Positions 26,197-27,450 of a stretch of 64,000 nt of DNA are shown here, piece by piece. This DNA is from Escherichia coli. GTDB taxonomy: Bacteria > Pseudomonadota > Gammaproteobacteria > Enterobacterales > Enterobacteriaceae. A program made the position numbers and the translations under genes. Position 1 is the first letter of the stretch; each line of letters starts with the position of its first letter. The notes under the pieces are model-generated. The model did no database searches and had not been told where the DNA came from. It saw only the letters and a list, made by a program, of their open reading frames with translations. The stretch lies in NCBI RefSeq assembly GCF_030384885.1, contig NZ_CP128613.1. One strand, 5' to 3'.

Positions 26197-27450
26197 TTAA
26201 GACTGCTGATAAGACGTTGCCGTTGTCCGGCACTCCGGGCAGATAAACGCGTAAATCATCCCTTCGCCATATTGTTCAATATCGGCATAATCCAGTTGCG
26301 CAAGAAACATCATTGTGTGGGAACATTGCGGACAGAGAGGATATTCCGCGTCCTGAATCCAGGTTGGATGCCCGCCAAGTTGCGAGAAAGAGACAGGTAA
26401 AAATGGGTCTGCGGCAAATAACGGTGACCTAAGGTTTCCCTGTCTCATGCTGTTTACAGGGAGTCGACGCCATTCCGATACATCATCCGGCAGCCAGGCA
26501 GGCGGTGCAGACAAATGAGCGTTACCCCGTGAGTCTATGTAACCGAAAATGGTGCTATAGGCGGTGCAACATTCACACGTCACGACGCGAAACCTGCCTT
26601 TATCGCTAAGACCCGTTGCCTTCAGGTCAACGTCGAAAAGATTTGTTAGGGGCAATGCGCAATTTGGACAGGTATCGCTGCGTTCATCAACAACACGCAA
26701 AGCTTCGCAACACCCGGTGCTTTTCATCTCCAGATGAAAACAGTGAGGAAAATAGAGATTACGTCTCTGCCCTTCAGCGGTTAACTCCCAACCGGCCTCA
26801 TGCACATATTCTTCTGGCGCGATGTAAAGTGAACTGCGCCACAGCGGCGGGTTATTGCGCCAGTAGGCAAAACGTTCAACAACAACGTCATCCCCAATCC
26901 ATGCCAGACATTGCAGAATACAATTTCTGTTTTCTGCATCATCCTCAACCCGTTCTAACAGCGTATCGCGAACATCCGCTGGGGCGCGGTGGAAAGGCAG
27001 AGGAGAATAAGCGTCTAAATCATCATAAGAGATCCACTCTCGTAAATATGCATCCAGATTTGCCTGGGTAAACGCCGCCAGACAAAGACAAATCTCCTGA
27101 GCGTGTTCATATTCACCAGACGCAAAGCGTTCTGTGGCGCAATCAGCCATCAGCTGCGCTTGATCGGCAGTCAGTTGTTGATACAGGGCATCGGTGGGAA
27201 CGGGGCAGGGAGTCCAGTCGATTAACGCATCGAATTTCCGTGGCTGGTGAACTAATTTCAGCATGGCAATCGGATCGCTTAGCCCAGCAAACACATTCAC
27301 GGTCTTTTTATTTTTCCTGATATATTCATCGTGCTCACGCTGCTGTTGTGCCTGAACGCAGGGCATACAGTATCCGTCAGTACGCGCAGCGGTTTCCGGA
27401 AGAATGGTTGATGTACAAGCGGGGCTTTTACAGGGAATACGGTGAGTCAT
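26197..27450 (-). CDS. Cys-rich hypothetical protein (417 aa) with YwqG/DUF1963-like C-terminal region
   Basis: Long ORF; N-terminal CxxxC...CxxC cluster; C-terminal LGGHPTWIQDAEYPLCPQCSHTMMFLAQLDY...GMIYAFICPEC resembles the DUF1963 pattern as I recall it. Confidence 0.65.
   Translation of the reverse strand: MTHRIPCKSPACTSTILPETAARTDGYCMPCVQAQQQREHDEYIRKNKKTVNVFAGLSDPIAMLKLVHQPRKFDALIDWTPCPVPTDALYQQLTADQAQLMADCATERFASGEYEHAQEICLCLAAFTQANLDAYLREWISYDDLDAYSPLPFHRAPADVRDTLLERVEDDAENRNCILQCLAWIGDDVVVERFAYWRNNPPLWRSSLYIAPEEYVHEAGWELTAEGQRRNLYFPHCFHLEMKSTGCCEALRVVDERSDTCPNCALPLTNLFDVDLKATGLSDKGRFRVVTCECCTAYSTIFGYIDSRGNAHLSAPPAWLPDDVSEWRRLPVNSMRQGNLRSPLFAADPFLPVSFSQLGGHPTWIQDAEYPLCPQCSHTMMFLAQLDYADIEQYGEGMIYAFICPECRTTATSYQQS

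Follow-up and report, generated by a model that had tools for sequence, protein, structure and literature searches.

A gene downstream of hemF

The present analysis concerns a gene on the minus strand of a 64,000-nucleotide stretch of Escherichia coli DNA (contig NZ_CP128613.1; the whole stretch is called the window here) that encodes a 417-residue protein. The complete coding sequence (CDS) occupies positions 26197..27450 (-). It opens with ATG in the list of open reading frames (ORFs) and ends with the stop codon at 26197-26199, and a Shine-Dalgarno sequence, AAGGAG, can be read 7 nt before the ATG at 27458..27463 (-). The initial annotation, made from the sequence without database searches, had described a Cys-rich protein of this length at this place, and the product does contain 22 Cys (5.3%). 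The protein is also acidic: 56 Asp and Glu residues against 35 Lys and Arg give a net charge of about -21. Homologues matching over 100% of its length are found at E-values of 1e-92 to 1e-271 in several phyla. The ratio of nonsynonymous to synonymous substitution rates (dN/dS) between two alleles of the E. coli lineage is 0.23, which indicates purifying selection on the gene. Because of the full-length homologues, the conserved clusters of four Cys (C4) described below and this dN/dS value, the reading frame is far beyond chance. Thus 26197..27450 can be taken as a genuine gene without lesions, whose product is an acidic, cytoplasmic and conserved protein.

On the same strand, hemF (27589..28488, -) ends 138 bp upstream of the gene, as had been noted initially, and the next ORF beyond the gene lies 59 bp downstream. 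Neither the spacer between hemF and the gene nor the gap to the next ORF contains a terminator-like or sigma-70-like site, and transcription by read-through from amiA-hemF is plausible. The spacer does hold a 15-bp AU-rich imperfect hairpin at 27516-27553 (-). There is no U-tract behind it, and shuffled versions of the entire spacer fold just as well (z 0.75). Therefore, this hairpin is probably not a terminator.

Domain architecture and family membership

The protein consists of an N-terminal Cys4 zinc ribbon, a HEAT-like alpha-solenoid and a C-terminal beta domain made of two TYPP repeats, each with one Cys4 site. TYPP denotes the TSR4/YwqG/PDCD2L/PDCD2 superfamily, to which Pfam family DUF1963 belongs (PMC4275035). 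This architecture is based on an alignment of 33 diverse sequences, about 50 columns of which are invariant, and on an AlphaFold2 (AF2) model with a predicted local distance difference test (pLDDT) score of 91.6 and a predicted template modelling (pTM) score of 0.87. Full or nearly full conservation is seen for each of the 12 Cys residues in the three C4 clusters. The zinc ribbon covers residues 1-35 (27346..27450, -), where the invariant C7, C12, C28 and C31 probably bind zinc. The N-terminal Cys cluster had been recognized initially (C7KSPAC12...C28MPC31), although its first pair is C-x4-C and not CxxxC as stated then. A long helix (residues 29-47) comes next after the ribbon, according to the secondary structure of the AF2 model. 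The solenoid, residues 86-220 (26791..27195, -), comprises 10 helices and carries an invariant WIGD repeat signature at 184-187. It superposes on HEAT-repeat proteins of the HEAT_2/PBS-lyase type (YibA, CpcE/CpcF, NblB) and shares their ALAWIGD-type repeat signature. Unlike these proteins, it gives no Pfam HEAT match, has few repeats and is fused to a TYPP domain.

The first TYPP repeat (residues 221-340; 26431..26790, -), delimited by alignment, conservation profile and hhalign, has the invariant Cys4 site C261/C264/C292/C295. Its GGxP position is degenerate, being represented by the invariant A-G-W-E-L at 219-223, and the repeat is the most variable part of the protein. Variation is otherwise found mostly in the first half of the HEAT domain. 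The second repeat (residues 341-417; 26200..26430, -) is the most conserved part. It contains the motif SQLGGHPTWIQD (26350-26385, -), the Cys4 site C373/C376/C404/C407 and the C-terminal YQQ[ST], and its motifs read S356QLGGHPTWIQD...C373PQC376...FLAQ385...C404PEC407. Invariant here are S356-Q-x-G-G-x-P-x-W-x-Q-D367, including the GGxP hallmark at G359-G360-x-P362, together with C373, C376, C404, Q385 and the terminal Y-Q-Q; C407 is kept in at least 90% of the aligned sequences. An hhalign comparison of repeat 1 with repeat 2 (probability 69%, E 4.5e-5) aligned the CxxC...CxxC of both, so the two halves of the beta domain are detectably homologous to each other. The motifs that had been assigned to the C-terminal 150 or so residues are indeed present, but they lie within the last 60 or so, and the homologous domain is larger than was claimed, extending over approximately residues 221-417. 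Some family variants of about 500 residues have the finger replaced by additional helical repeats. No enzymatic fusions were seen among the variants, and fusions were discarded as a functional clue, since the long variants bring nothing but these helical repeats.

The sole significant Pfam match of the protein is DUF1963 (PF09234), with an independent E-value of 5.7e-5 and 24 bits; it is confined to residues 356-403 and model positions 1-51 of 216. Precomputed DUF1963 matches in the homologues are weak, faint or absent. There are other data consistent with this assignment. First, the identical gene in RefSeq is named 'DUF1963 domain-containing protein'. Second, hhalign against three classical YwqG-like neighbours gave a probability of 88% (E 2.9e-6, 57 columns). 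In this alignment the second, best-conserved repeat of our protein pairs with the N-terminal repeat of the classical proteins, and the invariant Q385, which corresponds to the highly conserved Gln described for the pocket floor in the second repeat of TYPP proteins, is aligned with their FLAQL. Third, the fold agrees with that of Bacillus subtilis YwqG (PDB 1PV5), a solved DUF1963 member, at a sequence identity of 12%. The likeness to DUF1963/YwqG proposed from the sequence was thus supported. The relationship is a distant one: the family profile had no match among PDB sequences at E <= 1, 1PV5 included, the Pfam match covers 48 residues, and neither the zinc ribbon nor the HEAT domain occurs in classical YwqG proteins, of which the aligned examples also lack the CxxC pairs. 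No characterized enzyme family emerged in place of DUF1963, as the protein had no match in NCBIfam, PADLOC, PHROGs or the PDB sequences. The PADLOC models of anti-phage defence did not match its four neighbours either. Foldseek against AFDB50 returned uncharacterized DUF1963 proteins only, including those from Campylobacter showae and C. concisus.

TYPP proteins are recognized by their pair of repeats, the GGxP motif, a conserved Gln and, optionally, CxxC pairs (PMC4275035). In their 'prokaryotic family two', an uncharacterized alpha-helical domain precedes the TYPP domain, often with a C4 zinc finger in front (Burroughs and Aravind 2014, PMC4275035). The 417-residue protein shares with this family the C4 finger, the alpha-helical domain, here identified as HEAT-like, and a TYPP domain with GGxP, the conserved Gln and paired CxxC in both repeats. 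Moreover, the two Campylobacter species of the structural matches also occur in the published transitive searches (PMC4275035). The protein therefore falls within the TYPP/DUF1963 superfamily, with the architecture published for family two, and nothing found departs from this computationally described kind. The present work adds that the helical domain is HEAT-like, that three Cys4 sites are conserved, that the hemF slot is syntenic and the island in E. coli composite, and that in a single lineage there is a link to immunity-like gene arrays. In the literature on DUF1963, YwqG, TYPP and Salmonella STM2452/STM2453, no experimental work on bacterial members was found. The earlier statement that DUF1963 has no assigned function accordingly holds for the bacterial members, whereas the eukaryotic TYPP members Tsr4 and PDCD2, from yeast and animals, are chaperones of the ribosomal protein uS5 (PMC7736825).

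Distribution and putative function

An exhaustive HMMER search of cluster representatives retrieved 1437 clusters (50% identity) at E <= 1e-3, 269 of them at E <= 1e-30. Full-length homologues of 38-60% identity are present in Salmonella, Klebsiella, Kluyvera, Chitinimonas, Acidobacteriota, Clostridium and many Paenibacillus. A counterpart is near-universal in Salmonella. In E. coli, 28 of the 5426 complete genomes carry the gene, always on the chromosome and always annotated as an intact CDS, and in nearly all the others eutR and hemF are directly adjacent. No homologue was detected among 50,697 phage records, and the 72,556 plasmid records yielded one weak partial match only. The E. coli protein is 55-61% identical to its counterparts in other genera, in comparison with 86-90% for hemF and amiA, and its dN/dS exceeds the 0.01-0.11 of amiA, eutR and hemF.

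Gene neighbourhoods were compared in one genome per species, at 80 loci (about 60 from Paenibacillus), and ORF clustering covered 84 loci. The flanking ORFs fall into 270 distinct clusters, none of which is a neighbour family common to several lineages, and a conserved partner gene was therefore rejected. The gene is stand-alone throughout, with hemF as a neighbour (cluster 30) in Enterobacteriaceae only. Two further candidates were set aside: the small ORF clusters with high counts are antisense ORFs inside the gene itself, and a GNAT family common to Paenibacillus and Chitinimonas, varying in distance and strand, was judged a chance occurrence. At one locus from a 7.5-Mb genome (L011, 7330-8604), a HEAT_2-repeat protein of nearly equal length (424 residues) is encoded 58 bp downstream of the homologue on the same strand. 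Its match to the family profile has E 0.1, and it may be unrelated or a very distant paralogue.

On balance, we lean towards a non-enzymatic module for binding a protein or peptide, which would be the chaperone or adaptor of one particular partner whose gene is located at another place in the genome. In PDCD2 and Tsr4, the TYPP repeats bind a basic, unstructured segment at the N-terminus of uS5, and the binding is lost when either repeat is mutated (PMC7736825). By analogy, the invariant residues of repeat 2 (S356-Q-x-G-G-x-P-x-W-x-Q-D367, Q385, Y400 and Q415-Q416) could form a pocket that would grip an extended, probably basic segment of a partner, much as the uS5 tail is held by Tsr4 and PDCD2. 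A second binding surface may be offered by the HEAT solenoid, and the three Cys4 zinc sites would be structural and stabilize the fold. A non-catalytic protein with such a pocket, a second surface and structural zinc would make a dedicated chaperone or adaptor. The acidic composition, the lack of any enzyme-family match and the fusions that add helical repeats alone speak for a binding role. That the gene stands alone, with no neighbour conserved over 84 loci, agrees with a partner gene at some other location. The near-invariance of the motif across phyla, the absence of toxin neighbours, the position off mobile replicons and the broad occurrence in Paenibacillus point to a conserved endogenous partner. 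The protein shares with Tsr4, PDCD2 and PDCD2L the superfamily and the two-repeat GGxP/CxxC/Gln organization, to whose repeats the binding of uS5 has been mapped, and PDCD2 also carries an extra zinc-binding module. However, it gave no direct sequence or fold match to these proteins, the link being made via the literature, and the bacterial gene is dispensable and patchily distributed. Since the N-terminal extension of uS5 is specific to eukaryotes, the bacterial partner must differ (PMC7736825).

Several observations weigh against this preferred role as a chaperone or adaptor. First, the gene is dispensable, being missing from 99.5% of the complete E. coli genomes. This and its faster evolution than that of its neighbours argue against a housekeeping client. 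Second, many of the roughly 50 columns that are invariant across phyla are polar (R161, D187, R341, S356, Q357, Q366, D367, Y370, Q385 and Q415). A surface that does nothing but bind is rarely so strictly conserved, and an active site would be equally compatible with this pattern. Third, the patchy distribution, the raised evolutionary rate and the arrays of Bacillales described below favour a role in conflict, as one clade of the family is located in arrays that resemble those of immunity genes. Finally, Burroughs and Aravind labelled the zinc finger of family two as DksA/TraR type (PMC4275035), and this identity was not reproduced: the finger had no match to Pfam zf-dskA_traR even at E <= 10, and BLASTP to an approximate DksA sequence gave E 1.5 on an unrelated segment.

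A possible though rather doubtful alternative is that the protein is an orphan immunity protein, which binds and neutralizes a toxin of competitors (delivered by a type VI secretion system (T6SS), a type VII system (T7SS/LXG) or contact-dependent inhibition (CDI)) and is kept as a stand-alone 'pre-emptive' gene, like those in polyimmunity loci. In 16 Bacillales loci, from Paenibacillus, Fontibacillus, Sporosarcina and Lysinibacillus, the gene is a member of tight, co-directional arrays whose gene order is shuffled between species. These arrays contain SUFU, SUKH_6, SMI1_KNR4, ankyrin repeats and classical DUF1963/YwqG proteins, as well as DUF2625, DUF6138, DUF6678, DUF7638/9 and kinase and ligase proteins resembling those of RNA repair. 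They fit what has been described as typical of heterogeneous polyimmunity loci, and immunity proteins made of HEAT repeats are known as well (PMC3482391). When the 149 distinct families in the flanks are ranked, SMI1_KNR4 (3-4) and SUFU (2) come out level with AraC, MFS and GNAT. Like many immunity proteins of polymorphic toxin systems, which in polyimmunity loci include SUKH, SuFu, Imm-Ank and Imm-HEAT (Zhang et al. 2011, 2012), the 417-residue protein is acidic, cytoplasmic and built of protein-interaction repeats. The patchy distribution, the raised dN/dS, the variable repeat 1, the integrases adjoining some distant family members and the Tli3-family T6SS immunity gene beside the gene in the window would all agree with this alternative. 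However, the array loci all belong to one clade of the gene tree and thus represent roughly one evolutionary event. Other clades have ordinary neighbours such as AraC regulators, MFS and ABC transporters and GNAT acetyltransferases, and the features of polyimmunity loci are absent from them and from the window. The family is present in about 60 Paenibacillus species, mostly amid ordinary genes. No toxin gene was found beside the gene or its homologues in the window or in the loci inspected, a survey that was not exhaustive. The phage and plasmid records are practically empty of homologues. Moreover, the putative binding motif hardly varies between Proteobacteria and Firmicutes, unlike the typical fast-diversifying interfaces of immunity proteins, and typical immunity proteins are much smaller than this one and far less conserved. 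The family is not named as an immunity family within the text searched (PMC3482391). In the window, Tli3 and its Sel1 neighbour belong to a separate, AT-rich, recently moved segment; the 417-residue gene is on the opposite strand and differs from them in G+C content (GC) and synonymous divergence (dS).

Nine of the Bacillales arrays (L024, L026, L037, L040, L047, L056, L062, L067 and L073; at about 2-11 kb in each) also encode a polynucleotide-kinase-like protein and probably a protein of about 750 residues with RNA-ligase, AAA_33 and Metallophos domains, the assignment of Pfam families to single genes being only partly resolved. This hints at RNA-repair genes travelling with immunity genes in these arrays.

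A catalytic function seems improbable. Under this alternative, a TYPP pocket with invariant Gln, Asp, Ser and Tyr would act, for example, in peptide or protein modification, while the HEAT domain would recruit the substrate. The polar positions near GGxP and the C-terminal YQQ are extremely conserved across phyla, and catalysis was raised by Burroughs and Aravind as a 'more radical interpretation', but the same authors see little enzymological precedent for it (PMC4275035). No enzyme family or fold was matched, and the eukaryotic homologues work by binding (PMC7736825).

More generally, it may be tentatively suggested that the bacterial proteins composed of zinc ribbon, HEAT and TYPP are widespread stand-alone escorts or neutralizers that clamp an exposed basic segment of a specific partner. 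If true, and if the partner is an endogenous nucleic-acid-binding protein, they would be the bacterial counterpart of the Tsr4/PDCD2 chaperones of ribosomal proteins. If the partner is instead a conserved interbacterial toxin, they would constitute a new and unusually conserved immunity family riding in polyimmunity islands. In either case, a bacterial TYPP/DUF1963 protein would have been given a function for the first time. Bacteria commonly have DUF1963/TYPP proteins, and their eukaryotic relatives are essential ribosomal-protein chaperones. The gene described here is a clean full-length example in Escherichia with a Salmonella counterpart, and would thus be a convenient experimental entry point. 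As far as annotation of the window is concerned, the family name given to it is already right, and the gene is an ordinary accessory one.

The slot between eutR and hemF

The order in the window is eutK-eutR, a segment of about 3.85 kb, and hemF-amiA-ypeA. The segment between eutR and hemF is composite. The 417-residue gene has a host-like GC of 50-51%, compared with 35-45% in two Sel1 ORFs, the Tli3-family gene and an ORF of 221 codons. Between two lineages, dS is 0.17 for the gene and 0.16 for eutR (0.08-0.17 for the genes flanking the inserted segment), whereas it is 0.008 for the 221-codon ORF and 0.026 for Tli3. The last two values suggest recent horizontal transfer of these two genes. 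The 417-residue gene is not part of the AT-rich Sel1/Tli3 insertion alongside. In Klebsiella, Yokenella, Superficieibacter, one metagenome-assembled Enterobacteriaceae genome, E. albertii and Salmonella, the amiA-hemF slot holds the gene without Tli3 or Sel1, sometimes accompanied by the small YpfK gene. Its host-like GC and dS and the same slot in relatives therefore indicate an old resident of a variable hot spot and not a partner of hemF.

The constant place downstream of hemF might suggest an accessory factor of HemF or of haem biosynthesis, which is effectively excluded. At six loci of Enterobacteriaceae the gene does come after amiA-hemF, co-directional and without an intervening terminator, and the adjacency pointed out initially is syntenic in this family. 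However, it is missing elsewhere and is thus not evidence of shared function. Moreover, 99.5% of the complete E. coli genomes have hemF without the gene, and in GCA_902837975.1 two other genes separate hemF from the homologue. Iron ABC transporter genes occur within 6 kb in several Firmicute loci, but these transporters, of the FecCD type, come from common families and are encoded at a distance of 1.4-5 kb, and they were rejected as partners. A functional link to hemF was ruled out on this distribution. It is equally hard to credit that in this strain the gene is decaying and no longer has a function: it has been lost from most E. coli, its dN/dS is above that of the flanking genes and the adjacent Sel1 gene is a pseudogene, but its frame is intact and full-length with every family-invariant residue kept, its dN/dS of 0.23 reflects purifying selection, its ribosome-binding site is good and all 28 E. 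coli copies are intact.

The 221-codon ORF had no match in Pfam, NCBIfam or PADLOC. Its homologues form 8 clusters, and the two with source names are from E. coli and E. albertii. In GCA_902837975.1 (L097, 6001-11837), hemF is followed by a 223-codon ORF homologous to it (57% identity), a helicase of the SNF2 family on the opposite strand (1149 residues, with DUF3670 and DUF8276), the homologue of the 417-residue gene (89% identical) and YpfK. The ORF was rejected as a partner, being family-less, confined to these few clusters and not adjacent to the homologue in that slot.

The AT-rich segment extends over 23800-26200, with 35-45% GC against about 50-58% in the flanks. The Tli3-family gene (PF24316; 24637-25437, +) encodes a T6SS lipase-immunity protein with a signal peptide. 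The two 'TPR/Sel1' ORFs (23819-24640, +) are one Sel1-repeat gene split by an in-frame stop at 24173-24175 (…SGDGVT*NYKEAF…), where another strain has Lys. Strain 2017-02-2CC has a different lesion in this gene, a frameshift located further downstream, and the gene was therefore inactivated independently in two lineages. Finally, the eutR and hemF ends (23400-23735 and 27589-27800) are about 92-93% identical to almost all of the 5426 complete E. coli genomes, so the window seemingly derives from a divergent Escherichia lineage labelled E. coli. Strain 2013C-4282 is an exception, its region around the gene being 99.9% identical.

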